Part shown: positions 1,644 to 64,000 of the stretch, piece by piece
Numbering within the stretch: the stretch's first letter is position 1
Layout: the number at the start of each line of letters is the position of its first letter
DNA from: an uncultured Planctomycetales bacterium
GTDB taxonomy: Bacteria; Omnitrophota; Gorgyraeia; Zapsychrales; JAHFFX01
Direction of reading: 5' to 3'
NCBI GenBank assembly: GCA_964372915.1
Contig: CAYJRN010000004.1
Coordinates: forward strand, 55,516-119,515
DNA: 64,000 bases
The notes under the pieces: generated by a model
The model's database searches: none
What the model was told of the DNA's origin: nothing
Seen by the model: the letters and a program-made list of their open reading frames with translations, nothing else
Position numbers and translations under genes: made by a program

Positions 1644-2882
1644 ATGTCCCAAAATTTCCTTAAGTGGTTTTATCCCCGTTTAAAGATCAAGCGGTGGTTT
1701 CTTACCTCTCTGCTGGGAATCCTGATCGTCTGGTTGGGGGCGATCTTCACGACCAAACCCTATTCGATTGTCAATGCCTTTGGGTTTGTCGTTATCTTTG
1801 TAGGCATTGCTTTTATTGTCTGGGGAATTTCCGAAACCATCATTTCGATCTTAAGTCTGTTTCTTCCCGGCGGCGTCCAGGAGCTCGTCAACATCCTCTA
1901 TCAGAGGCGTTACTTGGAGCGAGGGCCTAAAGTGGTCGCGATTGGAGGAGGCCACGGCCTTTCGAATCTTTTATTAGGATTAAAGGGATATACCTCGAAT
2001 TTGACGGCCATCGTCACGGTCGCCGACAGCGGCGGTTCTTCCGGACGCTTGAGAGAAGAGTTCAACATTGTCGCCCCGGGAGATATCCGTAACTGCCTGG
2101 TCGCTTTGGCCGATGCGCCGGCTTTGATGGGCAATCTCTTTCAATTTAGATTTTCCAAAGATTCCCAGCTGCAAGGCCACAATCTAGGGAATCTTTTCCT
2201 GACGGCGATGGTTCAATTGATGGACGGGGATTTTGAAAAAGCGGTGAAGGAATGCAGCAAGGTTTTGGCCATTCGCGGGAAGGTCGTTCCGGCGACGGTC
2301 AGCAACATCCATTTGGTGGCGGAATATATGGACGGTAGCCGCACCCAAGGAGAGGCCAGAATTCCTAAAAGCGGAGCCAAGATTAAACGTCTGACTTTAA
2401 CCGACAATGCCAACCCAACAGAAGATGCCCTGGAGGCCATCCGTCAGGCGGAAATTATTGTTTTGGGACCGGGAAGTCTATACACAAGCGTCATTCCCAA
2501 TCTTATCATCAAGGGAATGGCCGAGGCGATCGCCGGGTCTCGGGCCTATAAGCTTTATGTATGCAATGTGATGACCCAGCGCGGCGAGACGGAAGGGTAT
2601 TCGGCCGCCGATCACATCCAAGCCATTCTTGATCATGCCAATGGAGGGGTTATGAACGCCTGCATCGTCAATAACGCCGTTGTCCCAAAGAATGCGCTCA
2701 GCCGTTATGAAGCCGAAGACTCTTATCCGGTTAAACCCGACACGGAAAAGATTCACGACATGGGATATGAAGTGGTCGCCACGGATCTTTTGACCGTCAA
2801 CGATTACGTCCGTCACGATTCGAGAAAATTAACCAAAGCCTTGATCAATCTCATTGAAAAGCATCGTGTGATCAAACGTTAA
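1644..2882 (+). CDS. YvcK/CofD-like gluconeogenesis factor family protein (UPF0052) with an N-terminal 2-TM extension
   Basis: Core VVAIGGGHGLSNLLLGLK…TVADSGGSSGRLR typical of the YvcK/CofD family; the N-terminal ~90 aa are hydrophobic. Confidence 0.7.
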   Translation: MSQNFLKWFYPRLKIKRWFLTSLLGILIVWLGAIFTTKPYSIVNAFGFVVIFVGIAFIVWGISETIISILSLFLPGGVQELVNILYQRRYLERGPKVVAIGGGHGLSNLLLGLKGYTSNLTAIVTVADSGGSSGRLREEFNIVAPGDIRNCLVALADAPALMGNLFQFRFSKDSQLQGHNLGNLFLTAMVQLMDGDFEKAVKECSKVLAIRGKVVPATVSNIHLVAEYMDGSRTQGEARIPKSGAKIKRLTLTDNANPTEDALEAIRQAEIIVLGPGSLYTSVIPNLIIKGMAEAIAGSRAYKLYVCNVMTQRGETEGYSAADHIQAILDHANGGVMNACIVNNAVVPKNALSRYEAEDSYPVKPDTEKIHDMGYEVVATDLLTVNDYVRHDSRKLTKALINLIEKHRVIKR

Positions 2883-2892
2883 CAAGAGCACG

Positions 2893-3022
2893 GTGTAACA
2901 ACCCTGAGTCCCTCGACTTCGCTCGGGATGGTGAGCTTGTCGAACCACAAGTCCCGGACTTCCCCGGCCCGCCAGAGGCGACAGCCGGGACGGGCAGTCC
3001 GGGGTGTGTCGAAGGGTTGACC
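2893..3022. repeat. GC-rich intergenic repeat element A (related to copy B at 8337-8472)
   Basis: Shares GTGTAAC…TCGACT(T)CGCTC…CTGAGCTTGTCGAA…AGTCCGGGGTG(T/C)GTCGAAGGGTTGAC with 8367-8472; both copies encode the same spurious antisense peptide VNPSTHPGL. Confidence 0.65.
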
Positions 3023-3042
3023 GTAATCCATGGACCCCAAGG

Positions 3043-3306
3043 ATGCCCAAGATCGAAAAAGAGATGACAATTATGAATGGCCAGGGACTTCATGCCCGTC
3101 CGGCGGCGATGTTCGTTCAGATCGCGGTCAAATACGATTCCAAGATTACCGTTAAGAAAGGCGAGGAAGCGGTTAACGGCAAATCCATTATGGGGATTCT
3201 GATGCTGGGGGCACAGCATCTAAATAAGGTGACGCTGACTATCGAAGGCGATGATGCCGAGGCGGCCTTGAAGGAACTTGAGGAGTTTTTAGGAAAAGAT
3301 GGATGA
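3043..3306 (+). CDS. ptsH: Phosphocarrier protein HPr
   Basis: [11 protein letters not shown] active-site His motif with HPr length and fold signature; start ambiguous between ATG 3043 and ATG 3064 (3043 gives an N-terminal length closer to known HPr). Confidence 0.8.
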
Positions 3307-5071
3307 AGATGAAGTTGTCTTAAAAGGGATTCCGGCGGCACCGGGCATTGCGAGCGGTTCAGCGTTTATCCTCGACAAGCAGGACTTTATTGTCCCGGTC
3401 CGGGCGGTGATGAAACAGGAAGTCCCCATTGAAATTGCGCGCTTTGAGGAGGCCCTCATTAAGACCCGCGAGGAAATTCTGGCTATCCAGAAAAAAATCA
3501 GCGAGGCGATGGACGGCCAGCATGCGAAAATTTTTGATGCGCATCTGCTTGTGCTCGAGGATCGTATGCTCATTGAAGAGGTCATTAAGGATATCAAAAA
3601 GGAAAAACTTTCCGCCGAGTACATCTTCTCCAAGGTTTTGAAGAAATATACCAAGGCGATGTCTAAAATTGAGGATGAGTACCTGCGCGAGCGCACCGGC
3701 GATGTGAATGATATCGGGCGCCGAATCCTCAAGAATCTCATGGAGGAGAGCAAGCTCCAGGAGTTCGAAGATCTCACGGAAAAGATCATCATTGTGGCGC
3801 ATGACCTTTCTCCCTCGGACACAATCACCATGTACCATAAAAATATCATAGCGTTTGTGACTGACATCGGCGGCAGAACCTCTCACACGGCGATCATGGC
3901 GAAATCTTTGGGGGTGCCGGCGGTCGTGGGGTTAAAAGATTCCACGCTTAAGATCAACAATCAGGATCATATTATCGTGGACGGCCGTATGGGGCTGGTT
4001 ATTGTCAATCCCACCTCAACAACGGAGGGGATCTACCGCAACGAACAGAATCGCATTGTGGCCCTCAAGGACCGTTTCGCCGACATCAAAGATCTTCCGG
4101 CTCAAACCATCGACGGCAAAAAAGTTTCCATCCTGGCGAATATTGAATTGCCGGAGGAAATCCCGATGGTCAAAAAATACGGCGCCTCCGGGATCGGTCT
4201 TTACCGCACCGAATACATGTATATGAATCGGGTGGATCTTCCTCTGGAAGAAGAGCAGTTCAAAGCCTATCAGCAGGTGGCTAAGGCCATGGCCCCTTAC
4301 CCGGTCACGATCCGCAGCCTTGATCTGGGCGGCGATAAGTTTGTTTCCAGCTTGCAGATCCCTCGGGATATGTCTCCGTTCTTAGGCTGGCGGGCGATCA
4401 GGTTCTGCTTGGAACGCCCCGATATTTTTAAGGCCCAACTGCGAGCGATTCTTAGAGCGTCCATGTATGGGAAATTGCGCCTGATGTACCCGATGATCTC
4501 GGGGGCCGGGGAACTGCGTCAGGCAAACGCTATCCTGGAAGAAGTCAAAGTCAATTTGAGGGAAGAAAAAATCCCGTTTGATGAACAAATGCCGGTAGGT
4601 GTCATGATCGAAGTTCCTTCAGCGGCGTTAACCGCCGATCTTCTGGCGCGGGAAGCAAAGTTTTTTAGTATCGGCACCAATGACCTTATCCAATACACGC
4701 TGGCCGTCGAGCGCATCAATGAAAAGACCGCGGACCTTTATGAGCCGGGACATCCGGCAGTTTTGAAACTCATCAAGGCGTCCATCGACGCCGGTCACAA
4801 AGAGAATATCAGCGTGGGGCTTTGCGGAGAAATGTCGAGTGAGCCTTCGCTCGCTTTGCTTTTGTTGGGGTTGGGGTTGGATGAATTCAGCATGTCTCCG
4901 GGAAGTATTTTGCAGATCAAGAAACTCATCAGGAGTGTCCGTTTCACGGATGCCCAGAAGCTGGCCAACAAGGCCCTGACTATGTCGACGGGACAGGAAG
5001 TAGAGGAGATCGCCGTCGCCCGCCTGAAGGAGCTTGCCCCGAACATTTTTACGACCGAGAGGGAAGACTGA
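3299..5071 (+). CDS. ptsI: Phosphoenolpyruvate-protein phosphotransferase (PTS Enzyme I)
   Basis: 590 aa; [21 protein letters not shown] phospho-His region and the C-terminal PEP-utilising domain (…LDLGGDK…GTNDLIQY…). Confidence 0.9.
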
Positions 5072-5075
5072 CGCC

Positions 5076-5813
5076 ATGAAGGTCTTGATTCTTGCCGCCG
5101 GCTATGGCACGCGACTTGAGGTCATCGCCAAGGATATCCCGAAGCCATTGTTGTCCATCAAGGATCGGCCGCTCATCGATTATATCGCGGACAAATTCCG
5201 CAATCTTTCCGGAATCTCTCAGATTCTCGTTGTGACCAATAACAAATTTTTTCATGCCTTTGAATCGTGGGCCGAGAAACAAAAGGATTTTTCTCAAAAA
5301 CCGAAAGTCATCAATGATGGTTCCAAGTCTCCGGATGAGCGTCTGGGATCCATGGGCGACATCAACTTTGTTATTCAAAAGGAAAAAATCTCGGAGGACC
5401 TCTTGGTTGTTGGGGGTGACAATTTGTTCGATGCCGGCCTTGAGGATTTTATCCGCCGGGCTAAGGAAAATTCTCCTCATGTGACGATCGGCCTGTATGA
5501 TATCAAAGAGAAAGAAAAGGCGAAAATCTTTGGCGTTGTCGGTCTGGATGAAAAGGGAAAAGTGATTTCCTTCGAGGAAAAACCTTCGCAACCCAAATCC
5601 ACGCTCATCGGGATGTGCCTGTATTATTATCCAAAGGAATCGCTTGGGCTTGTGGATCGCTACCTCAAGGAATCCAAGAAATCGGATACGGCCGGCGATT
5701 ATATCAACTGGTTGTACCAAAAAGAAAGTGTTTATGGTTTTAAATTTTCGGGGAAATGGTATGATATCGGGAGCGTTGAATCCTATTATGAGGCGTCGGG
5801 GAACTTTAAATGA
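5076..5813 (+). CDS. Sugar-phosphate nucleotidyltransferase (NDP-sugar pyrophosphorylase family)
   Basis: MKVLILAAGYGTRL…KPLL… N-terminal nucleotidyltransferase signature; RBS GAGAGGGAAG upstream; substrate unknown. Confidence 0.65.
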   Translation: MKVLILAAGYGTRLEVIAKDIPKPLLSIKDRPLIDYIADKFRNLSGISQILVVTNNKFFHAFESWAEKQKDFSQKPKVINDGSKSPDERLGSMGDINFVIQKEKISEDLLVVGGDNLFDAGLEDFIRRAKENSPHVTIGLYDIKEKEKAKIFGVVGLDEKGKVISFEEKPSQPKSTLIGMCLYYYPKESLGLVDRYLKESKKSDTAGDYINWLYQKESVYGFKFSGKWYDIGSVESYYEASGNFK

Positions 5814-5851
5814 CCCCGTAGACCTATATTCAGAAAGGAAGGAAATCTAAA

Positions 5852-7000
5852 GTGAAAGAGAAATATTTTATTACTTCAGAATCCGTCGGTAACGGTCATC
5901 CGGATAAAGTGTGCGATCAAATTTCTGATGCGGTGTTGGATTGCGTCCTCAAGGACGATCCCAAAGGGCGCGTGGCCTGCGAAACATTTGTCACCGCGGG
6001 GCTCGTCATCGTCGGGGGCGAGATCACGACCAAGACATTCGTCGATGTGCACAAATTGGTTCGCCGGGTGCTCACCGAAATTGGTTACACGCATAGTAAA
6101 TACGGATTCAATTCCGAAACTTGCGCTATCCTCAATGCCATCAACGGTCAGTCGCCGGACATTGCGCAAGGCGTGGACACGGGCGGTGCCGGGGACCAGG
6201 GCATCATGATCGGCTATGCCTGCGATGAGACGCCGGAGCTTATGCCTTTGCCCATCATGCTCGCGCACCGTTTGGTCAAGCGCGTGGAAGACGTGCGAAG
6301 CAAGATTCTCCCTTACCTGGGGCCGGATTGCAAGAGCCAAGTGACCGTCGAATACAAAGACGGAGTGCCGCAAAGAGTTGATACGGTCGTTCTGGCCTGT
6401 CAGCATACGGAAGAAATTCTCGATAAGACCGGTAAAAAGATTACCGATCAAGCCCGTGAGGAAATGATCAATGAGGTTGCCAAGCCGATCGTCGGAAAAA
6501 TGGCAGATAAGGGTACCAAATATTACGTCAATCAAACCGGAAAATTCATTGTCGGCGGTCCGCAGTCGGACACGGGAATGACGGGACGCAAGATCGTCGT
6601 GGATACCTACGGAGGTGTCGTTTCCCACGGCGGCGGGGCTTTTTCCGGCAAGGATCCGACCAAGGTGGACCGTTCCGCAACCTATATGGCCCGTTATCTG
6701 GCCAAGAATATCGTCGCGGCCAAGCTCGCCAAGAAATGCTGGATTCAATTCGGCTATTGTATCGGCAAGGCCGAACCGGTGAGCGTCATGATCGACACCT
6801 ATGGGACGGGAAAAATTTCTGATCAGAAGTTGGTTGAGTTGACGCGTAAGCACTTTGATCTCACCCCCAAGGGTATTATTGAGACACTCAAGCTTTTGGT
6901 GCCGATTTACCAAAAAACAGCCGCCTACGGTCATTTCGGTCGTGAGGAATTTTCCTGGGAAAAGACCGATAAGGTCAATCTCTTCAAGAAGAATGCGTAA
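5852..7000 (+). CDS. metK: S-adenosylmethionine synthetase
   Basis: GTG start; …[22 protein letters not shown]… and [17 protein letters not shown] motifs. Confidence 0.9.
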
Positions 7001-7004
7001 AAAT

Positions 7005-8261
7005 ATGAAGTATGATATTAAGAATCGTTCGCTGGCCAAGAAAGGGAAACTCCGTATTGAATGGGCCGGGCGGGATATGCCGGTCCTCAAGCTCATTGAA
7101 AAAAGATTTAAGCAAGAAAAGCCTTTGAAGGGTTTAAAGGTGAGTTGCTGTTTGCACGTGACCACAGAAACAGGCAATCTCGCGCGTGTTCTAAAGGCCG
7201 GCGGGGCGCAAGTGGCTGTTTGCGCTTCCAATCCGTTATCCACTCAGGATGATGTGGCGGCGTCTCTGGTCGAGGATTATGGCATTCCGGTTTTTGCCAT
7301 CAAAGGGGAAGATAGGGATACCTATTACAACCATTTGAATGCCGCGCTTGATATCAAACCGAATCTCACCATGGATGACGGCGCGGATCTGGTGTCGGTC
7401 GTGCATCAAAAACGAAGGAATCTCGCCCAGAATATTTTTGCGGGAACGGAAGAAACGACCACGGGCGTCATCCGCCTGAAAAGCCTTGAACAGCAGAATC
7501 TCTTGCTGTACCCCATCATTGCCGTCAACGACGCCATGACGAAACATTTTTTTGACAACCGTTACGGCACGGGCCAGTCGACGCTCGATGGGATCATCCG
7601 CGCCACCAACCGTTTGATCGCCGGCGCCAATTTTGTCGTGAGCGGTTACGGCTGGTGCGGTCGAGGCGTGGCGAGTCGGGCTGCCGGGATGGGGGCAAGC
7701 GTCATCATCACGGAGGTGAATCCTTTACGCGCCCTTGAGGCCATCATGGATGGCTATCGGGTGATGCCGATTAAGCAAGCCGCCCGGGTGGGCGACATTT
7801 TTGTGACCGTGACCGGCGATATCAACGTCATCCGCGCCGAGCACATGGTTTTAATGAGAGACGGCGCTATCCTTGCTAATTCCGGGCACTTCGACGCGGA
7901 ATTGGATTTAAAAGGCCTTACCAAAATCACCAAGGCCAAACGCCTGATCCGTGATTTTGTCGAGGAGCATAAGCTGACCAACGGCCGTAATATTTATATT
8001 CTAGGGGAAGGTCGTTTGATCAATCTCGCTTCTGCCGAAGGGCACCCAGCTTCCGTCATGGACATGAGCTTTGCCAATCAGGCGCTCTCTGCCGAATACG
8101 TGGCTAAAAACCACACAACGTTACAGAAGAAAGTCTACGGCGTTCCCGAGGCCATCGATCGGATGATTGCCAAGTTGAAACTTGAGAGCCTAGGTGTTAA
8201 AATTGATACCCTAACACCCGAGCAAAAAAAATACCTGTCTAGCTGGGAAATGGGAACTTAA
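7005..8261 (+). CDS. ahcY: Adenosylhomocysteinase (S-adenosyl-L-homocysteine hydrolase)
   Basis: ~418 aa from ATG 7005; NAD-binding [13 protein letters not shown] and conserved AdoHcyase blocks; the ORF-track frame extends upstream, but the conserved N-terminus begins [14 protein letters not shown]. Confidence 0.88.
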
Positions 8262-8290
8262 GACGTTTGCAAGTTATTGAGAAGAACCCA

Positions 8291-8323
8291 AGGCTACAGG
8301 TGGCGGACGGCTGCTTGTAGCCT
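8291..8323 (+). terminator. Hairpin after ahcY (putative terminator, no T-run)
   Basis: aggctaca…tgtagcct 8-bp stem 30 nt after the ahcY stop. Confidence 0.3.
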
Positions 8324-8336
8324 TAATCCTTGTTGC

Positions 8337-8472
8337 CACTGCGCGGCCCGCTTGGCGGGCCGCGCAGTGTAACCCATTCGACTCGCTCCGCTCGCTCATG
8401 GCCCTGAGCTTGTCGAAGGGCAACCCTGAGCAAGCCCCGGACTGAAGTCCGGGGTGCGTCGAAGGGTTGACG
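8337..8472. repeat. GC-rich intergenic repeat element B (15-bp perfect palindrome + element A-like core)
   Basis: cactgcgcggcccgc-ttgg-cgggccgcgcagtg followed by gtgtaac…cgactcgctc…ctgagcttgtcgaaggg…agtccggggtgcgtcgaagggttgac. Confidence 0.65.
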
Positions 8473-8500
8473 TTTGTATCATGAACCACGGGAGTGAATC

Positions 8501-9517
8501 ATGCCAAAAATCTATTATGACAAAGACGCGGATTTGAATTTTATCAAAGATAAAAGGATCGCGATTATTGGCTACGGGATCCAAGGCCGGGGACACGCGC
8601 TCAATTTACGCGACAGCGGCCTCAAGGTTGTTGTCGGGCAACGCTCCCCGCAAGAAGCCGCGGGGCAGGCCGGAGGGTCTAATTATGAACAGGCGAAGAA
8701 AGACGGTTTTACGCCGATGGAAGCGACCGAGGCCGCCAAGAGTGCGGATATCATTGTGATCCTTACCCAGGATCACCTGCAGGGGGAAGTGTACAAGAAA
8801 TCCATCAAAAAGAATTTGAAGAAGGGCAAGTCGCTCGTTTTCTCTCACGGTTTTAATATCCATTTCAAACAGATCGTTCCCCAAAGGGATGTGGATGTGT
8901 TCATGATCGCTCCGAAAGGGCCGGGCTCACTGGTGCGCCGGCAGTATGAAGAGGGCAAAGGCGTCCCTTGTTTGGTGGCCATTCATCAGGACCCCTCGGG
9001 GCAGGCGCTTAAAACCGCGCTCGCTTATGCCAAAGGGATCGGGGGGGCTCGCGCCGGGGTCATCGAAACGACGTTCAAAGAAGAAACCGAGACCGATCTT
9101 TTCGGCGAACAGTCCGTCCTGTGCGGCGGCACCTCCGAACTGGTGAAGGCGGGCTTTGAAACGCTGGTGGCCGCCGGCTATCAGCCGGAGATTGCTTACT
9201 TTGAGTGTTTGCATGAGCTTAAACTCATCGTCGATCTTATTTATGAAGGCGGTTTGACGGGCATGCGCAGGCGCGTCTCCGACACGGCCGAGTACGGCGA
9301 TTACACAAGGGGGCCCCGCGTCATCAATCAAAGGACCCGCAAAGAAATGCAGAAGATCCTCAAGGAAATTCAATCGGGAAAATTTGCCCGCGAATGGATG
9401 AGGGAAAACAAAAAGGGCCGTCCCAATTTTAACGAATTCCGCAAGCGCGACGAGAATCATCCGGTGGAAGCGGTGGGGCGCGAGCTACGGGATATGATGC
9501 CCTGGATGAAGAAATAG
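8501..9517 (+). CDS. ilvC: Ketol-acid reductoisomerase
   Basis: 338 aa; [21 protein letters not shown] Rossmann motif and KARI C-terminal domain. Confidence 0.9.
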
Positions 9518-9582
9518 ATCCCTCGGCCGAGCGAGTTTATATGGAATCTAAGGGGCCTCGGGATAAATTCGACTAACAACTT

Positions 9583-10290
9583 ATGTCGTTTTGCTCCATA
9601 AGTTGTAGTCTTATTTATGATGCCGTGGATGAAAAAATAGTTATGGCCGTTGAGACAAAAATCCAAGCGCCATTAAAATTGCACTTAGGCTGCGGGACCA
9701 ACAAGCTTTCCGGATGGGTGAATATCGACTCGGTCAAGGGCTGTGGGCCGGATCAGGTTCTGGATTTGATGCAGCCTTTGCCGTATACAGATGAGAGTGT
9801 CGATGAAATCCTCGGCGAGGATTTGCTGGAACATTTTGACAAATACATGCGCTTTGTGGTTTTTGGCGAATGGGCCAGAGTTTTAAAAATTGGAGGGACG
9901 ATCACCGTACAGGTCCCCGATTTAGAGAAAATTTTATCAAAGCAACGCAAATTCGGTGGTCTTGAGAATTTTATGGATTTTATTTTTGGCGAAAATATGT
10001 GGCGCTCCGAAATTTATATAGGACACTTCGGCAATCACAAGTGCGGTTATTCTGACAAGTCACTACAGGAATTTGTATCGCATTTTGGAATTAAAACCGT
10101 CTCGTTAGAAACCGTTGGCTTCAATTTGCGTTTGACGGGGCACAAAGCCCGGCATGTTCCAGCGGAGGAACTCGATAAAATACTGATTCATTCCCACGCG
10201 AACGCGACCGGCATCGGCCAGGCCGATTTGTCGCTTGGGTTTGTGCGGGAGAAAATTAAACAGTTTCAGAAAAATATAGAAAGCGACTAA
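9583..10290 (+). CDS. Class I SAM-dependent methyltransferase-like protein (hypothetical)
   Basis: LKLHLGCGTNKLSGWVNID motif-I-like segment; likely true start near 9643 (MAVETK…); function unknown. Confidence 0.5.
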   Translation: MSFCSISCSLIYDAVDEKIVMAVETKIQAPLKLHLGCGTNKLSGWVNIDSVKGCGPDQVLDLMQPLPYTDESVDEILGEDLLEHFDKYMRFVVFGEWARVLKIGGTITVQVPDLEKILSKQRKFGGLENFMDFIFGENMWRSEIYIGHFGNHKCGYSDKSLQEFVSHFGIKTVSLETVGFNLRLTGHKARHVPAEELDKILIHSHANATGIGQADLSLGFVREKIKQFQKNIESD

Positions 10291-10292
10291 TT

Positions 10293-10366
10293 CGTCACAA
10301 GTCACAAGGTCACACGTCATAAGTAGTTTTTACTTGTGCCTTGTGTCTTGTGACATGTGACTTTTA
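10293..10366 (+). promoter_or_regulatory. Long imperfect hairpin built from tandem GTCACAAG / CTTGTGAC heptamer repeats, followed by TTTT; terminator or leader structure upstream of leuA
   Basis: gtcacaagtcacaaggtcacacgtcataagtag-ttttt-acttgtgccttgtgtcttgtgacatgtgac then ttttaagg, 12 nt before the leuA ATG. Confidence 0.45.
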
Positions 10367-10377
10367 AGGAATAACTT

Positions 10378-11889
10378 ATGAAAGACGAAAACAGAGTATT
10401 AATCTTCGATACCACCCTGCGCGACGGCGAACAGGCGCCGGGAGCGAGCATGACGGAAAAGGAAAAGCTCGAGATCGCGTTTGCTCTTGAGCGTCTGGGG
10501 GTCGATATTATCGAGGCCGGGTTTCCGATCAGTTCCGCAGGCGATTTTAATGCCGTCGCGATGGTCGCCAAGAACATCAAAACGTCCGTTGTGTGCGGAT
10601 TAGCCCGTTGCATCAAAAAAGACATCGATGCGGCCGGCGACGCCATCAAGGCCGCCAAACGCGGGCGCATTCACGTATTCCTTGCCACCTCGAAGATCCA
10701 TCTTCAATATAAATTCAAAAAAAGTGAAGAAGAGATCTTTCAGATGGCGGTTGATTCGGTTAAGTACGCGCGCGGCAAGACCGAGAACGTGGAATTTTCT
10801 CCCGAAGATGCCTCGCGTTCGGAGAAGTCCTTTCTGTACCATGTGCTCGAGGCGGTCATTGAAGCAGGAGCCACGACCGTCAATATTCCTGACACCGTCG
10901 GTTACGGCGTTCCTCAAGAATACGGAAAACTTATTACGGACATCAAGAATCATGTTCCCAACATTCACAAGGCCGTGATCTCGGCCCATTGCCACGACGA
11001 TCTGGGACTGGCGGTGGCCAATTCCATGGCGGCGATTCAAAACGGGGCAAGGCAAGTCGAATGCACTATTAATGGCGTGGGAGAGCGCGCCGGCAACGCC
11101 TCGATGGAAGAGATCGTCATGCAATTAAAGACCCGTCAGGATTTTTATAAGTGCACAACCGGCATTAACACCAAGGAGATTGCCCGCGTCTCGCGTTTGG
11201 TGAGTAAGGCGACCGGTTTTATCGTCCCGCCTAACAAGGCGATCGTGGGTGCCAATGCTTTTCGTCACGAGTCGGGCATCCATCAGGACGGAATACTCAA
11301 AGAACGCTCGACGTATGAAATCATGCAACCCGAAGATGTCGGGATTGTCGGAACCGGGGGCCTCGTTCTGGGGAAGCACTCCGGCCGTCATGCGTTCAAG
11401 GCCCGCTTAAAAAGTCTGGGAGTTGATCTCAGTGATTCGCAACTCGACAAGGCCTTTGAACGTTTCAAAACCGTGGCCGATAAGAAAAAACAGGTTTTTG
11501 ATGAAGACCTTCTGGCGATCGTTGAGGATGAGACCAAACTGGTTCGGGATACTTGGAGCTTAGTGAGCCTTAAGACCACCAGCGGCACTAATATCAAACC
11601 GCACGTGGAGGTGGTCCTTAAGTCCAAAGGCAAAACCTTTGAGGCCAGTTCTTCCGGTGATGGTCCCATCGATGCGTGTTACAAGGCCATTGACAGTATC
11701 ACCAACATGAAAGGCGAGCTTCTGGATTACTCGATCCAGTCCGTCACGCGCGGCCAAGACGCCTTAGGCGAGGTTACGCTCAAGGTTAAGATCAAGGACA
11801 AGAGCGTGATTGTCCACGGCGCCAGCACGGATATCCTCGAAGCCTCTGCCAAGGCCTATTTGAACGCCATCAACAAGGTGCTCTCATAA
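10378..11889 (+). CDS. leuA: 2-isopropylmalate synthase
   Basis: 503 aa; LRDGEQAPGASMT…HCHDDLGLAVANS… HMGL-like domain plus the LeuA dimerisation/regulatory C-terminus. Confidence 0.9.
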   Translation: MKDENRVLIFDTTLRDGEQAPGASMTEKEKLEIAFALERLGVDIIEAGFPISSAGDFNAVAMVAKNIKTSVVCGLARCIKKDIDAAGDAIKAAKRGRIHVFLATSKIHLQYKFKKSEEEIFQMAVDSVKYARGKTENVEFSPEDASRSEKSFLYHVLEAVIEAGATTVNIPDTVGYGVPQEYGKLITDIKNHVPNIHKAVISAHCHDDLGLAVANSMAAIQNGARQVECTINGVGERAGNASMEEIVMQLKTRQDFYKCTTGINTKEIARVSRLVSKATGFIVPPNKAIVGANAFRHESGIHQDGILKERSTYEIMQPEDVGIVGTGGLVLGKHSGRHAFKARLKSLGVDLSDSQLDKAFERFKTVADKKKQVFDEDLLAIVEDETKLVRDTWSLVSLKTTSGTNIKPHVEVVLKSKGKTFEASSSGDGPIDACYKAIDSITNMKGELLDYSIQSVTRGQDALGEVTLKVKIKDKSVIVHGASTDILEASAKAYLNAINKVLS

Positions 11890-11895
11890 GAATAG

Positions 11896-11946
11896 CCGGG
11901 GGCACCCCGCACCAAATTGGTGCGGGGCGCCCCCGGCAGTTTTTCC
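11896..11946 (+). terminator. Rho-independent terminator after leuA
   Basis: ccgggggcaccccgcacc-aaatt-ggtgcggggcgcccccgg followed by CAGTTTTTCC. Confidence 0.7.
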
Positions 11947-11947
11947 T

Positions 11948-12826
11948 ATGCAAAATCGCAAAGCTGTCTTCGGTATCATCGGGGATCCCCTCAGTCATAG
12001 CCTTTCTCCCGTCATGCATAATACGGCATTCAAGGAGCTCGGTTTGAATGCCGTCTACAAGCTCATTCCCTTGAAAGCAGAAGAATTGATGGTCTTTTTC
12101 GCGGCCTTGAAGGATGAGGAAAGCGACATCTTTGGGCTCAACGTGACGATCCCCTACAAGCAAAAGGTCGTCGAGTATATGGATTTTTTACAGCCGTTTG
12201 CCCAAGAGGTGAAGGCGGTCAACACCGTCGTTGTCTCGCCCAATCGGACCTTAACGGGAGTGAATACGGACGGACCCGGCTTTCTCGCGCACTTGGCGGA
12301 ACTTAAAGTTGATACGAAAAACAAAAAGATTGCCCTTTTAGGCGCCGGAGGGGCCGCGCGCGCGATCATCGCTTCGTTATGCCTTATTCCTGAAAGACCG
12401 TATTCCATTCGAGTCTACAATCACCATAAGGAAAAGACAGACGCGCTCATCAAAGATCTTAAGGAAAGAATGGATGTGAGCTTTGTAAGCTCGGTTGCTA
12501 CCCGCGAAGAATTAAACCTAGCATCGGCGGATTTGCTCATCAACGCCACTCCCTTGGGACTGAACAATGAGGATCCTTTGCCGATCGACGAGAATCTGAT
12601 CCATCGGAATTTGCTGGTGTACGACGTGATCTACAATCCTCAAGAAACGCGTTTACTGCGCGCGGCCCAAAAAAAAGGCGCTAAGACCGCCAACGGTCTT
12701 GGGATGTTGTTCTGTCAAGGGACACTTTCCTTTCATCACTGGATGGGATTTGAGCTGAGCGATAAAATCAAGATAAAAATGTGGAAAAGTCTTATTGACG
12801 ATTGTTCCTCTAAAAAGGATTTTTAA
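11948..12826 (+). CDS. aroE: Shikimate dehydrogenase
   Basis: VFGIIGDPLSHSLSPVMHN… substrate-binding N-terminus and GAGGAARA NADP motif. Confidence 0.85.
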   Translation: MQNRKAVFGIIGDPLSHSLSPVMHNTAFKELGLNAVYKLIPLKAEELMVFFAALKDEESDIFGLNVTIPYKQKVVEYMDFLQPFAQEVKAVNTVVVSPNRTLTGVNTDGPGFLAHLAELKVDTKNKKIALLGAGGAARAIIASLCLIPERPYSIRVYNHHKEKTDALIKDLKERMDVSFVSSVATREELNLASADLLINATPLGLNNEDPLPIDENLIHRNLLVYDVIYNPQETRLLRAAQKKGAKTANGLGMLFCQGTLSFHHWMGFELSDKIKIKMWKSLIDDCSSKKDF

Positions 12827-12828
12827 AA

Positions 12829-12936
12829 GAGAACAATCGTCGCCCCTGTTTTCCTTAAAACATATTCAGAGGAAACTGGGGCAGTCCTCACTTCCTCTGA
12901 AAATTTTTCAAAGGAAAGTGAGGGCGAGATACTGGC
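12829..12936. repeat. MITE-like repeat element C, copy 1 (forward)
   Basis: gagaacaatcgtcgcccctgttttccttaaaa…cctcacttcctctg…ggaaagtgagg…gatactggc is the reverse complement of 41919-42020 at ~90% identity; internal hairpin cctcacttcc/ggaaagtgagg. Confidence 0.7.
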
Positions 12937-12989
12937 TACCATAACTGTATTTAGAAAAGAAAAAGCCAGTAAAGAAGGAAGGCGGTAAC

Positions 12990-30323: not shown

Positions 30324-31174
30324 GGACAAAAAGCCCCTCGATGATTTCAGCTCGTAATCCTTTAAAGACCAAGGCCACTGCCAAAACGCTGAAGGTCATC
30401 GGTGTCATCCCGGCCCGCTATGGTTCCACGCGTCTTGCGGCCAAGGTGCTGGCGGATCTAAACGGCAAACCGATGATCCAGCATGTGTACGAGCGCGCGG
30501 CCAAGAGTCAATATTTGGATGAACTTTTGATTGCCTGCGACCATGAACGCGTTTTGAACAAAGCTAAAGAGTTCGGCGCCCAAGCGGTTTTAACGTCGGT
30601 CCATCACGCCTCGGGCACGGAACGGATCGCGGAAGCGGTGAAATCCATCGACGCGGAAATCGTCATTAACATTCAGGGAGATGAGCCGCTCATTCATCAT
30701 TCGGTGATCGATGATTTGGCAAAAGCCCTTTTGGATGATTCCAATTGTCTTATGGCCACGGCCATCAAGCCCGTTGCCGTTGGGAGCAAGGAGTTGGACG
30801 ATCCCAACATCGTCAAGGTCGTCATTGACAAGAATCACAATGCTTTGTATTTTTCGAGGTCGTTGATTCCTTATGTACGTAAATCTAGCGAAGGTTTGAG
30901 GTACTTTAAACATTTGGGGATTTATGCCTACCGGAAAAAGTTCTTGATGGGCTTTAAGGATTTACCGAAATCGCGTTTGGAAGAAACGGAAAGTTTGGAA
31001 CAGTTGAGAGTTCTGGAAGCCGGATACAAAATTAAGACCGTTGAAACCAACATCGAGACGATCAGCGTCGATGTGGAGGAAGATATCAAGAAGGTCGAGG
31101 AGTATTTGAAAAAATCATCATCATCGGCCACAACTTACGGAGTCTCGCCGAAGGCGGACGAACGTAAGTTGTGA
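30320..31174 (+). CDS. kdsB: 3-deoxy-manno-octulosonate cytidylyltransferase (CMP-Kdo synthetase)
   Basis: VIGVIPARYGSTRLAAKVLADLNGKPMIQHVYERA; ~30 aa N-terminal extension; the 3' end overlaps the start of repeat E copy 1. Confidence 0.85.
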   Translation: MRTKSPSMISARNPLKTKATAKTLKVIGVIPARYGSTRLAAKVLADLNGKPMIQHVYERAAKSQYLDELLIACDHERVLNKAKEFGAQAVLTSVHHASGTERIAEAVKSIDAEIVINIQGDEPLIHHSVIDDLAKALLDDSNCLMATAIKPVAVGSKELDDPNIVKVVIDKNHNALYFSRSLIPYVRKSSEGLRYFKHLGIYAYRKKFLMGFKDLPKSRLEETESLEQLRVLEAGYKIKTVETNIETISVDVEEDIKKVEEYLKKSSSSATTYGVSPKADERKL

Positions 31175-31309
31175 GCCGAACTCGACCCAGCACTTATTTT
31201 GCGACACGGTGTTAAAGCCAAAATAAGTGCTGGGTTCAATTCCGTCACAGACTTACGTCGCTCCAAATGGGAGCTTCCGTAAGTCTGGACGTCATTGAAG
31301 GAACATTAA
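31150..31309 (+). repeat. Intergenic repeat element E, copy 1
   Basis: …gacgaacgtaagttg…cccagcacttattttg-cgacacggtgttaaag-ccaaaataagtgctggg (16-bp perfect stem) + GGTTCAATTCCG + cagacttacg…cgtaagtctg + gtcattgaagga + ATG of kdsA. Confidence 0.7.
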
Positions 31310-35690: not shown

Positions 35691-35878
35691 GTTGAGCGCA
35701 CAACTTGCGGAGCGTTTTAGGCGACGTAAGTTGACAGCGCGAAACTCACCCAGCACTTATTTTGCGATACCAGATTTAAGCCAAAATAGGTGCTGGGTAA
35801 ATTCGCACTTATAAGTTACGTCGTCCGCCAAAGGCGGACTCCGTAACTTATGTGCTCATTTAAGGAGTTAACAGCAAC
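35691..35878 (+). repeat. Intergenic repeat element E, copy 2
   Basis: …ggcgacgtaagttgacagcgcgaaactcacccagcacttattttgcgatacc…ccaaaataggtgctggg + gcacttataagttacg…cgtaacttatgtgc hairpin with inner gtccgcc/ggcggac + tcatttaaggag + ATG of tig. Confidence 0.7.
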
Positions 35879-37398: not shown

Positions 37399-37424
37399 GG
37401 GGTCGGGGAATTCCCCGACCCCTC
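37397..37424 (+). terminator. Perfect palindromic hairpin overlapping the clpP stop (no T-run)
   Basis: gagggg-tcgggg-aatt-ccccga-cccctc; followed by a GC-rich segment with partial similarity to repeat A/B (…cctgagcgg…gtcgaagga…). Confidence 0.4.
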
Positions 37425-40961: not shown

Positions 40962-41879
40962 ATGAAAAAAATTTTCTTTGTTCTTTTTGTAGTGTTTCTG
41001 CTCTCAGTTTCTCTTTTAAATGCGCAAGAGAAGGGGAAGGTTGCCCCTAAGGAGACCTTAACGAAAACGGCCGCTAAACCGTCTTTAGACCTTTGGGTGA
41101 TTGTCCCTTCGGATTGTCGCACCTGTCAGTTGGGACCCGTTGTGGACTCCTTGAAATCTTTTTTTCCGGATATTCAACCTCAACTCATAAGTTCGGCGGA
41201 ACCCTCAACGGTGGAAATGATTAAGCAGTTCAAAATTACGATGCTGCCGGCGTATCTCTTTTCCAAGTCTCTGGACAAAGAGGCGAACTTTGAGAAATTT
41301 CAACAAGCCGTTGAGCCCATCGCAGACAAGTACTACATGAAGCCCTCGCTTTCAGGCGTTTCTTACTTTTTGAATCGTCCGTTTAAGGCCGGCAGGCTTG
41401 ACTTGTTCGTCTTCATTTCCGCTAAAGAAAGTTTGCCCATCTTGAAGATGGTGGAAGGGATCGTGGAGCAAAAGCAAAGTTCCAAGAAGTTCACGCTCCA
41501 TTTGATTGGCAGAGAGAATCCGCAAAAAAAAGGAGAATTTCTTTCTCCCATGGGCAATCGGGAAGTGGAGGAGGGAAAACTGTTCGCCTGCATTGATGCT
41601 TATGCGCCGAAAGCCGCGGGGCAGTATCTGACCTGCCGTATGGCCGATAGCAACAGTCTTTTTTGGGAAGATTGTTTTCAGTCTAAGAGCGCTTCAAAAG
41701 ATAAAATCAAGGCATGCGTGAAGGGTGAAGAGGGCAAGCGGCTATACTTAGAAAAAATCAAGATGTCTCAGGAGTGGCAGATCTTGTATGGGCCGCTGTT
41801 TGCCTTGAACAACGTTGAGATTTTCGGTGTCACGTCCCAGTCCACGATCAACGATGTTTTGAACGCCATTGGACAGTAG
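40962..41879 (+). CDS. Hypothetical secreted protein with N-terminal CxxC (thioredoxin/DsbA-like?)
   Basis: Signal peptide MKKIFFVLFVVFLLSVSLLNAQE; …VIVPSDCRTCQLGP… then …ITMLPAYLF… reminiscent of a thioredoxin fold; additional Cys pairs C-terminally. Confidence 0.4.
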   Translation: MKKIFFVLFVVFLLSVSLLNAQEKGKVAPKETLTKTAAKPSLDLWVIVPSDCRTCQLGPVVDSLKSFFPDIQPQLISSAEPSTVEMIKQFKITMLPAYLFSKSLDKEANFEKFQQAVEPIADKYYMKPSLSGVSYFLNRPFKAGRLDLFVFISAKESLPILKMVEGIVEQKQSSKKFTLHLIGRENPQKKGEFLSPMGNREVEEGKLFACIDAYAPKAAGQYLTCRMADSNSLFWEDCFQSKSASKDKIKACVKGEEGKRLYLEKIKMSQEWQILYGPLFALNNVEIFGVTSQSTINDVLNAIGQ

Positions 41880-41918
41880 TTTCTACTGACCTTTTCCTTT
41901 CCAAAGACATTAAGGAAG

Positions 41919-42020
41919 GCCAGTATCTCGTCCTCACTTCCTCTGTATTTAAGGAAAGTGAGGACTGTCCCAGTTTCCTCTGGATCAATTTTAAGGAAAA
42001 CAGGGACGATGATTGTTCTC
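41919..42020. repeat. MITE-like repeat element C, copy 2 (inverted relative to copy 1)
   Basis: Reverse complement matches 12829-12936; flanked by inverted repeats gacgatgattgttctc / gaggaacaatcgtc. Confidence 0.7.
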
Positions 42021-42074
42021 TTAAGAAAACCCTGTTTAGAGGAACAATCGTCAATAAAAGAGGGTTATCCATTC

Positions 42075-62735: not shown

Positions 62736-64000
62736 ATGAGCCAATTGTCGATGATGAATCAAAACTTCAAACTTTTCAAGAACGATCCATTCACTCGTGC
62801 CCGTCGTGGCGTCCTTACGACTCCTCACGGCACGATCCAAACGCCGTTTTTTATGCCGGTCGGTACCAACGGCACCGTGAAGACGCTGTCTTCCGAAGAC
62901 CTGCATGAAATGAATTCGCAGATCGTGCTGTCGAACACCTATCATTTGTTCATTCGTCCCGGAACGGATGTCATCAAAAACGCCGGAGGCTTGCACAAGT
63001 TTATGAATTGGGACAAGCCGATCTTGACCGACTCGGGTGGATATCAAGTATTCAGTCTTGCGCAATTACGCAAGCTCACCGATCAAGGCGTTGAGTTTCA
63101 ATCTCACTTCGACGGTAAAACGCATTTCTTAACCCCGGAAGATGTGATTTCTATTCAGCGTATTCTTGGTTCGGATATCATGATGCCGCTCGATGAATGC
63201 GCGCCTTTCCCATGCGAGCGCGACCATGCGCTTGAAGCTTTGGAACGAACGACGCGGTGGGCAAAACGGTCGAAGGAATTCTATTTTAGCGATTCCGACT
63301 GGCCTCTCGCCGGAACGCTTGCCCCGCCCCAGCGAGGCGGGGCTACGCTCGACGCTCGGACTCGCTCTCCCCGCCTTGCGGCGGGGAACCATGCCCGCTC
63401 GTCCTCACGACGTCCGGCTCAAGGCCAGTCGGAATCGCCGTCAGATCAATATCGTCAATTTTTGTTCGGCATCATCCAAGGCGCGGCGTTCAAGGATTTG
63501 CGCGAGCGCTCCGCCCGTGAAATCATCGACATAGGTTTTGATGGTTATGCCGTCGGCGGCGTGAGTGTGGGCGAGCCCGTGGACTTGATGTTCGAGACGC
63601 TCGAGTGGGTTGAACCGCTTTTACCGGAAGATCATCCGCGGTATTTTATGGGTATTGGTTATCCGGATCAGATCGTGCGCGCGGTGGGGATGGGGATGGA
63701 CATGTTCGACACCGTGATCCCGACGCGCTTTGGCCGTAACGGCAGCGCGTTCACGGACCGAGGCCGCTTGGCCATGCGCAATGCCGAGTACACCAGCGAC
63801 ACGCGGCCTTTGGATGAAAACTGCGCGTGTATTGTCTGCCGAAAATATTCCAGAAGTTATATCCGCCACCTTTTAAACGCCGGAGAAATCTTAGGCCTTA
63901 AACTGCTTGCGTATCACAACGTTACCTTCTATATTCATCTTATGGAACGGATGCGCGGAACAATCGAAGCGGGGACGTTCAAACAGTTTCACGATAATTT
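62736..64000 (+). CDS. tgt: Queuine tRNA-ribosyltransferase (3' end outside window), carrying a ~50-aa in-frame low-complexity insertion
   Basis: …ARRGVLTTPHGTIQTPFFMPVGTNGTVK…PILTDSGGYQVFSL…GFDGYAVGG…CxCxxC…H zinc site; open to the window edge (absent from the ORF track because no in-window stop); start 62736 or 62751. Confidence 0.88.
   Translation, partial: MSQLSMMNQNFKLFKNDPFTRARRGVLTTPHGTIQTPFFMPVGTNGTVKTLSSEDLHEMNSQIVLSNTYHLFIRPGTDVIKNAGGLHKFMNWDKPILTDSGGYQVFSLAQLRKLTDQGVEFQSHFDGKTHFLTPEDVISIQRILGSDIMMPLDECAPFPCERDHALEALERTTRWAKRSKEFYFSDSDWPLAGTLAPPQRGGATLDARTRSPRLAAGNHARSSSRRPAQGQSESPSDQYRQFLFGIIQGAAFKDLRERSAREIIDIGFDGYAVGGVSVGEPVDLMFETLEWVEPLLPEDHPRYFMGIGYPDQIVRAVGMGMDMFDTVIPTRFGRNGSAFTDRGRLAMRNAEYTSDTRPLDENCACIVCRKYSRSYIRHLLNAGEILGLKLLAYHNVTFYIHLMERMRGTIEAGTFKQFHDN
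63290..63450. repeat. GC-rich palindromic element inserted in-frame within tgt
   Basis: ~70% GC versus ~50% flanks; hairpins gccccgcc-ccagcga-ggcggggc and ccccgcc-ttgc-ggcgggg; contains cgactcgctc, also present in repeats A/B; lengthens the WAKRS…GIIQG spacing by ~50 residues. Confidence 0.55.

Follow-up and report, generated by a model that had tools for sequence, protein, structure and literature searches.

A self-nesting hairpin module with a TGAGC/GTCGAA core forms REP/BIME-like repeat clusters in a probable Omnitrophota genome and recurs across phyla

In our analysis of a 64-kb stretch of contig CAYJRN010000004.1 (hereafter the window), which comes from an uncultured bacterium that is probably a member of the Omnitrophota, we found that three intergenic spacers (yvcK-ptsH, ahcY-ilvC and clpP-aminotransferase) hold GC-rich elements, which we designated A, B and C, and that these are mosaics of one module type consisting of a variable outer stem, a split TGAGC/GTCGAA core and, in some copies, a variable inner hairpin. 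The account of these elements that we favor, and consider probable, is that they are clusters of non-coding hairpin repeats resembling repetitive extragenic palindromes (REPs) and bacterial interspersed mosaic elements (BIMEs), and that they entered the intergenic DNA of this lineage as DNA elements. More tentatively, the TGAGC/GTCGAA module may represent an undescribed cross-phylum superfamily of self-nesting hairpin elements whose invariant core, with its GA mismatches and bulged T, would be the recognition and target site of a candidate single-strand nucleic-acid enzyme or binding protein. An intergenic repeat in the window would alone be an ordinary finding; it is the self-nesting module common to several phyla that appears to be undescribed. 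The preliminary description of this DNA, made from the window only, had treated A and B as two copies of a REP/BIME-like family and was partly right; the module with its compensating stems, and its sharing across phyla, were missed in that reading.

Repeat blocks and modules in the window

That A and B share repeat blocks beyond chance is borne out. The 26-mer AGTCCGGGGTGYGTCGAAGGGTTGAC occurs exactly on the + strand at 2996-3021 (A) and 8446-8471 (B), with no further match in the window at ≤3 mismatches (0 expected, 100 shuffles), and TGAGCTTGTCGAA is exact at both 2932-2944 (A) and 8405-8417 (B). The longest shared block had been given with a variable pyrimidine; TGAGCTTGTCGAA is indeed shared, but the base preceding its TGAGC is G in A and C in B. 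Related short blocks are TCGACTTCGCTC at 2913-2924 and TCGACTCGCTC at 8378-8388.

Defining a strict module as TGAGC-N0-45-GTCGAA with at least three flanking pairs, we counted five in the window, whereas 200 dinucleotide shuffles gave 0.13 on average and never more than 2; with looser forms included the total is seven (strict expectation 0.13), and every one falls in the three spacers named above. The modules are 17-54 nt long and fold as hairpins, and their outer stems vary yet stay complementary (CCC/GGG, GG/CC, CCA/TGG, CAACCC/GGGTTG, and ATCC/GGAT). Orientation alternates as it does in BIME clusters, with A-rev (-) next to A2 (+) and B-rev (-) next to B2 (+) and B3 (+), and five of the seven modules are in sense with the neighboring genes. 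These flanking genes (yvcK, ptsH, ahcY, ilvC, clpP and the aminotransferase, all named with NCBIfam) are without exception on the + strand, and the A, B and C hairpins lie 16-31 nt upstream of the start codons of ptsH, ilvC and the aminotransferase. Among the spacers listed, those of the family have the highest G+C (0.59-0.67), alongside an ordinary terminator hairpin at 11888-11944, the spacer of A being masked in that list by a spurious antisense open reading frame (ORF).

Element A occupies a 160-nt spacer between a yvcK/CofD-like gene (1644-2882) and ptsH (3043-3306, + strand; start taken from the gene call in locus L137), and is made up of the following units:
2899-3019, + strand: outer module of the B3 subtype, CAACCC-TGAGT (2899-2909) ... 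GTCGAA-GGGTTG (3008-3019), with three units between its halves
2910-2927, - strand: A-rev, short reverse module, reading CCC-GAGC-GAA-GTCGAG-GG(G) on the minus strand (regular-expression match 2912-2925)
2930-2946, + strand: A2, simple module GG-TGAGCTTGTCGAA-CC, with a GG/CC stem as compared to CCC/GGG in B2
2951-3004, + strand: inner hairpin that carries a second, small one in its loop; arms CCCGGACT (2953-2960) and AGTCCGGG (2996-3003)

Element A is in effect a B3-type module with further units between its halves, and RNAfold pairs CAACCCU with AGGGUUG in the outer module. Three Logan contigs of the same species stop at window positions 2932-2947, inside A2, as repeated k-mers would give, a drop in coverage at a GC-rich hairpin being also possible.

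Element B is in the 239-nt spacer between ahcY (7005-8261) and ilvC (8501-9517), where we distinguish:
8290-8334, + strand: terminator-like hairpin with a T-rich tail after ahcY, context only and separate from the repeat family
8337-8369, no strand: perfect palindrome ahead of the B modules, 15-nt arms, TTG loop, not followed by a T-run
8374-8401, - strand: B-rev, reverse module, reading CCA-TGAGC-GAGCGGAGCGA-GTCGAA-TGG on the minus strand
8402-8420, + strand: B2, simple module CCC-TGAGCTTGTCGAA-GGG
8421-8469, + strand: B3, inner-hairpin module CAACCC-TGAGC-AAG-[CCCCGGACT GA AGTCCGGGG]-TGC-GTCGAA-GGGTTG

The perfect palindrome (arms 8337-8351 and 8355-8369) is the one with which copy B had been said to start. 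The predicted RNA fold of B is very stable (z = -7.9). A and B both end 23-31 nt before start codons in sense orientation, and their ends (GTGTAAC...GTTGAC) are weakly inverted.

Element C is in the 91-nt spacer between clpP and the aminotransferase (start 37490) and is identical in four Logan contigs:
37399-37422, no strand: perfect palindrome GGGGTCGGGGAATTCCCCGACCCC, beginning 1 nt after the clpP stop codon
37421-37474, + strand: C, canonical module of the GTCAT class (see below), CCTCAT-CC-TGAGC-GGAG-[CCCCGAGGC TAC GCCGAGGGG]-CGGA-GTCGAA-GG-ATCA

The sequence after clpP had been thought a degenerate relative of A and B; it is in fact a model example of the most frequent subclass in the wider family, and its frame is common to 51 other metagenome and viral instances.

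Consensus structure and nesting

We aligned 21 module instances, B3 and C among them, and obtained with RNAalifold a consensus (fitted by B3) in which an outer stem P1 of 4 bp is followed by a tandem G.A/A.G, a G-C pair, a bulged U, a C-G pair, a 3x3 purine-rich loop and an inner stem P2 of at least 8 bp. Read as a single strand the core is U-A, tandem G.A/A.G, G-C, bulged U/T and C-G, with a center of 2-3 nt or P2. Compensatory change was seen in 10 of the 14 pairs, 94.9% of the alignment cells were paired as compared to 69.1% in shuffles, and the covariation score of 0.651 stands against 0.148 in shuffled alignments (0 of 500 reached it) and at most 0.123 with partners slid. In an unbiased viral sample the pair beside the core was paired in 90% of cases (TA, CG, TG and GC types), as compared to 15-19% when slid.

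A complete module may also stand inside the core of another, in the form TGAGC-nn-[TGAGCTTGTCGAA]-n'n'-GTCGAA with nn and n'n' complementary. A regular expression for this form returned 17 matches as compared to 0 for the control, next to ~600 simple cores; 13 of these are true nested modules and the other four come from a tandem array (L258). Element A is the same kind of nested arrangement.

Searches of Rfam with the whole window at the gathering score returned tRNAs and nothing at A, B or C, searches of the three elements up to E = 10 gave noise only, and no match falls on the modules in 19 other module-carrying loci. By inspection, a K-turn is a poor description of the core, which has no 3-nt bulge, the tandem G.A/A.G lying directly between U-A and G-C with a single bulged U; the defining positions of the hammerhead and hairpin ribozymes, group II intron domain V, the tRNA T-arm and D-arm and the integron attC site likewise do not fit.

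Occurrence in other genomes and metagenomes

Similarity limited to two loci had been named as grounds for giving up the repeat family; besides C, further copies were found across IMG/VR, PLSDB and JGI metagenomes. Among the matches listed, CTGAGCTTGTCGAAGG occurs in >120 IMG/VR stretches, with multiple, tandem or inverted copies on several contigs and a common 5' flank CCGTTCGyC. The 17-mer GGTGAGCTTGTCGAACC of the A2 module occurs in 82 IMG/VR stretches as compared to 10 for a reversed control 17-mer, and the 22-mer TGAGCGAGCGNAGCGAGTCGAA of B-rev in 19, with 6 copies on one contig (L151 and L157). In PLSDB the exact B2 sequence is multi-copy, intergenic and unannotated in replicons of Sphingobium, Novosphingobium, Polaromonas, Comamonas and Methylotuvimicrobium; unannotated module places number up to 11 per record in Sphingobium and up to 22 in Sphingomonas, the GAA-centered variant reaching 22 places per replicon of Sphingomonas parapaucimobilis. 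In the Sphingobium and Sphingomonas replicons the modules form inverted pairs between convergent genes, much as in REPINs (paired REPs). A scan of JGI metagenomes with the pattern CCTGAGC-N14-44-GTCGAAGG gave, among the matches listed, a strong hairpin as the insert in 51 of 134. The GTCAT class, which is dominant, reads (T/C)GTCAT-CC-TGAGC-GRR-[P2]-SSA-GTCGAA-GG-A(T/C)C, and C is a canonical member of it. Carriers of the module include a probable Omnitrophota, Alpha-, Beta- and Gammaproteobacteria, Acidobacteria-type soil contigs, and phage-like contigs.

Two viral contigs are especially rich in modules. The first (IMGVR_UViG_3300025154_000037, L206) is phage-like with 39% GC, gave no BLAST match to GenBank phages, and carries at least 19 modules in 11 kb, which lie between small genes (2600-11000) in both orientations, often as back-to-back inverted pairs, with an outer stem GTCA(T/C)NN / N'N'(A/G)TGAC in which NN covaries. 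Some of its modules have other hairpins inserted between the T and GAGC. The second (IMGVR_UViG_3300031555_011079, L151/L157) holds 8 copies of a ~190-nt unit with 14-nt terminal inverted repeats, bounded by TAAATGATCGTTTA / AAACGATCATTTA and containing one short-core and one hairpin-core module, inverted; this unit is a miniature inverted-repeat transposable element (MITE) built from TGAGC/GTCGAA modules.

For 150 GTCAT-class instances, with crude ORF picks serving as gene calls, we counted 21 convergent as compared to 6 divergent contexts, and 29 sense as compared to 16 antisense in tandem contexts; in an earlier sample the orientations stood at 31 vs 27. Searches of the literature with the core strings and typical translated peptides gave only primers or irrelevant matches.

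Comparison with close relatives

The closest named homologs of the window's IlvC (77-79% identity) are annotated as Candidatus Omnitrophota; look-ups of the exact IlvC and HPr sequences returned no record. Logan assemblies ERR4904390-3 and ERR3478686/7 contain sequence of the same species, and in them all three elements match the window without a difference. For two relatives (GCA_023247725.1 and GCA_964612665.1) the IlvC identity is 82-83%, and both retain the gene order EIIA-yvcK-ptsH-ptsI-...-metK-ahcY. In each of them the yvcK stop overlaps the ptsH start (TAATG), from which it follows that A lies inside an operon. We found no non-coding modules in ~60 kb of these relatives, the sole regular-expression match lying in coding sequence. 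Since A is missing at the syntenic position, we take it to be a lineage-specific insertion, as opposed to a conserved leader or operon-boundary signal.

Between ahcY and ilvC (window 8262-8500; L133 7286-9928; L135 5824-9901) the relatives carry a further 2-3 genes, encoding a DUF4140/DUF4139 protein, a phosphofructokinase and, in L135, also a fructose-bisphosphate aldolase. These are missing in the window with B at the junction, and B thus sits at a lineage-specific change of gene order. The proposal that the repeats mark operon boundaries is not supported by this comparison: A is inside an operon, and B is at a lineage-specific junction, after a separate terminator-like hairpin. The relatives also carry palindromic repeats of their own in the equivalent spacers, among them GTAG-rich GAAGTAGAGAGGAGCGAGTAG... 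after ahcY and GGACGTGGGACGTCGACGTCC before ilvC (L133 7170-7300; L135 5710-5830 and 9880-10000).

Origin of the elements and alternative explanations

Spread as DNA is favored by the presence of both orientations, by inverted pairs, by nesting, by amplification within single contigs and by absence from relatives. The unit is a hairpin module with a short P1 of varying but complementary sequence, the invariant TGAGC/GTCGAA core, and a center of 2-3 nt or a variable P2. Y1-HUH transposases, such as REP-associated tyrosine transposases (RAYTs) and the TnpA of IS200/IS605 insertion sequences, read single-stranded hairpins with mismatches or a bulged T. By analogy, an enzyme that acts in trans on single-stranded hairpin DNA, as those of RAYT or IS200/IS605 type do, may recognize the invariant mismatched and bulged core of our module and perhaps also use it as a target; a core with this role would explain the self-nesting. 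After insertion, the elements would be transcribed together with the + strand genes, and the RNA hairpins predicted upstream of the starts would be very stable; these hairpins may incidentally affect mRNA decay or the coupling of cistrons. This does not imply that A, B or C regulates any particular gene.

Several observations weigh against entry as mobile DNA. No transposase or other mobilizing gene was seen in the window, although no search aimed at one was made there, and when we looked for a mobilizer by association, among ORFs clustered near modules and ORFs between inverted pairs, we obtained only phage structural and low-complexity ORFs. Among the Logan samples there is no empty versus filled polymorphism for A, B or C, all being identical, so the word insertion rests on relatives with ~82-83% IlvC identity. 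A 20-mer combining hairpin and tail was not found as an element in GTDB representative genomes, its 8 matches being all coding or chance (they include the ychF GLVRGASKGEG motif and a repeated Longimicrobiales gene), and a 23-mer of the same make-up was not found in JGI metagenomes. The context statistics depend on the crude ORF picks mentioned above, and the tandem contexts have a mild sense bias. Finally, strong covariation in P2 together with an invariant internal loop is also what is expected of a functional RNA.

That last point leads to the rival which we regard as unlikely and yet the most serious, namely that the module functions as a structured RNA motif (bound by a conserved RNA-binding protein or nuclease, stabilizing mRNAs or signaling their processing, or forming a small catalytic RNA). 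Its activity would then reside in the conserved GA-rich internal loop, with P1 and P2 as a scaffold, and its repetitiveness would reflect repeated recruitment and not mobility. Heavy compensatory change in P1 and P2 around an invariant loop is in its favor, as are the five of seven window modules standing in sense 16-31 nt upstream of start codons, the tandem sense bias (29:16), the depletion from divergent, promoter-only spacers (6 vs 21 convergent), and very stable RNA folds such as that of B. Harder to reconcile with this reading are the frequency of both orientations, in the window as well as elsewhere and often in adjacent inverted pairs, the nesting of modules in each other, the amplification of near-identical copies within single contigs, the absence of the elements from close relatives at the same operon position, and the lack of a match to any Rfam family, including the ribozymes. 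What keeps the functional-RNA reading alive is the strong covariation, together with the mild sense bias.

We give much less weight to the idea that the elements serve as intrinsic terminators of transcription or mark operon boundaries. They contain GC-rich hairpins after stop codons, with the palindrome of C 1 nt past the clpP stop and B following ahcY. However, no family hairpin is followed by a T-run, and a terminator scan of these spacers returns only the separate hairpin at 8290-8334, with which ahcY already has a terminator-like structure and T-rich tail of its own; A, moreover, stands between genes that are translationally coupled in the relatives. Still less probable is a role of A and B as cis-regulatory leaders dedicated to single genes, for instance an attenuator responding to branched-chain amino acids for ilvC or a phosphotransferase-system regulatory element for ptsH. 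Their sense orientation and position 23-31 nt before start codons would suit leaders, but the same sequence precedes functionally unrelated genes, is missing upstream of ilvC and ptsH in the two relatives, and has no leader peptide, no terminator/antiterminator logic and no Rfam match, and the module is scattered across phyla in unrelated contexts.

Two minus-strand ORFs run through the elements:
2872-3219, - strand: spurious antisense ORF of 115 aa through A, overlapping ptsH (3043-3306, + strand)
8274-8489, - strand: spurious antisense ORF of 71 aa through B

A conserved minus-strand gene as the source of the similarity can be dismissed as next to impossible, for although both ORFs exist and contain the 9-aa peptide VNPSTHPGL, as had been noted, their likeness goes no further than the translated 26-mer, a search of 5.8 billion proteins gave no homolog of the B ORF, the A ORF is antisense to ptsH, and a unit that works in both orientations with variable-length insertions is incompatible with a reading frame; the earlier judgment that these ORFs are spurious is upheld.

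Relation to known repeat systems

As an interspersed family that is non-coding, GC-rich, hairpin-forming and mosaic with adjacent units opposed, the modules are fairly described as REP/BIME-like by functional analogy. They are similar to the REPs and REPINs that depend on RAYTs in E. coli and Pseudomonas in being short, imperfect, extragenic palindromes, multi-copy in the replicons and contigs described above, that occur singly, as inverted pairs and in clusters, in being depleted from divergent promoter regions, in having conserved mismatches or bulges within a variable hairpin, and in their lineage-specific presence. The A and B modules differ from them in having no terminal GTAG or CGTC/TGTC/CCTC tag (their flanks are CAACCC, GG, CCC and CCA), only C among the window elements having CCTC-AT...AT-CA ends. 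REP-like is apt for the architecture; membership in a classical RAYT-type family is not supported. Here, moreover, it is the central core that is conserved and not the foot of the stem, and this core is shared across phyla, whereas classical REP families are genus-specific; we know of no REPs in which nesting of one module inside the core of another is recurrent. The BIMEs of E. coli are likewise mosaic clusters of alternating hairpin units, intergenic and located within or between operons; they have no evident sequence relationship to the present elements, whose units are also nested and not only juxtaposed. The linker motifs and IHF site that define BIMEs are not evident in the present elements either, although no comparison aimed at these was made. 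The subterminal hairpins of IS200/IS605 elements have an extrahelical T and mismatches, are read as single-stranded DNA, and have a target related to the element's own end. Our module, with its mismatched hairpin and bulged T, seems to resemble these as they are generally described, and differs in having no adjacent transposase or TnpB and in being tens of nucleotides long, not a full insertion sequence.

The CGTC-tagged REP superfamily, which includes dRS3 of Neisseria and RPE-4 and RPE-6 of Rickettsia, has terminal CGTC/TGTC/CCTC, A-T/T-A stem ends and a short C-rich 3' tail, with stems of 8-9 bp and loops of 4-5 nt; it is abundant in Alphaproteobacteria, occurs predominantly as dimers and is served by no transposase of its own (Di Nocera et al. 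2013, PMC3733652). The verbal description of this frame fits both C and the GTCAT class. The TGAGC/GTCGAA core, a variable inner hairpin and nesting go unmentioned in that paper (PMC3733652), and our A and B modules have no such tag. The core strings are not in the supplements of that paper (PMC3733652). A further neighbor is Acido-Lenti-1 (RF01687), a repeated two-hairpin motif that we found 50-100 nt from GTCAT-class modules in three soil metagenome loci (L347 399-444; L316 1698-1743 and 3394-3439; L296 2511-2555); it has its own sequence and structure and no match in the window. This proximity shows mosaics in which the modules stand beside other repeated hairpins, and suggests that the Acido-Lenti-1 'small RNA' is itself part of intergenic repeat mosaics.

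Other repeats in the window

A recurrence of the cgactcgctc core in the tgt insertion and the tRNA spacer had been reported, but this 10-mer occurs once only in the window, at 8379. The tgt insertion carries GGACTCGCTC and the tRNA spacers carry CTACTTCGCTC; a link through a looser pattern (4 matches vs 0.72 expected) is not significant, being equalled in 2 of 100 shuffles. The tgt gene itself is one continuous frame from 62463 that runs off the window end, with an in-frame GC-rich insertion of ~50 aa at 63289-63438 between 26-nt inverted repeats (GCGATTCCGACTGGCC...GGCCAGTCGGAATCGC), reminiscent of Rickettsia palindromic elements inside genes. The tRNA spacers hold two 44-nt palindromic repeats (513-556 and 646-689, 84% identical) with CTAC...GTAG ends (ATTCTACTTCGCTCGCAC...GTGCGAGCTTCGTAGGAA), and come nearer in form than the A/B family to classical GTAG-tagged REPs.

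Another repeat family (31162-31302, 35748-35866 and 1124-1150) consists of a hairpin ACCCAGCACTTATTTTG...CAAAATAAGTGCTGGGT followed by TCCGTAAGT...CATTGAAGGA, and Logan contigs of the species begin next to ACCCAGCACTTATTTTG-type repeats, at window 35817 and ~1059-1066. Between the stop of the ORF at 40962-41879 and the next gene is a 172-nt AT-rich element (41883-42054), which is missing in Logan contig L009 of the same species (empty site TAGTTTT|TAAAAG, in a contig otherwise 99.9% identical) and has an inverted copy at 12792-12971 (79-88% complementary). This element is a polymorphic MITE-like insertion.

Implications

For the genome at hand, the analysis removes two false ORFs from the window and means that the sequences upstream of ptsH and ilvC are not dedicated regulators; the yvcK-ptsH operon junction is split by an inserted hairpin mosaic. 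Beyond it, an 11-nt split core with compensating stems extends from a probable Omnitrophota to sphingomonads, soil metagenomes and phage-like contigs and is absent from Rfam and the searchable literature. Translated elements of this kind would, if the superfamily is real, yield many spurious short 'hypothetical proteins' in metagenome annotations. Should one enzyme or binding protein recognize the core, the module would rank as a mobile or structural nucleic-acid motif of uncommonly wide distribution, and would also provide a practical filter for spurious gene calls and for repeat-induced assembly breaks in metagenomes.

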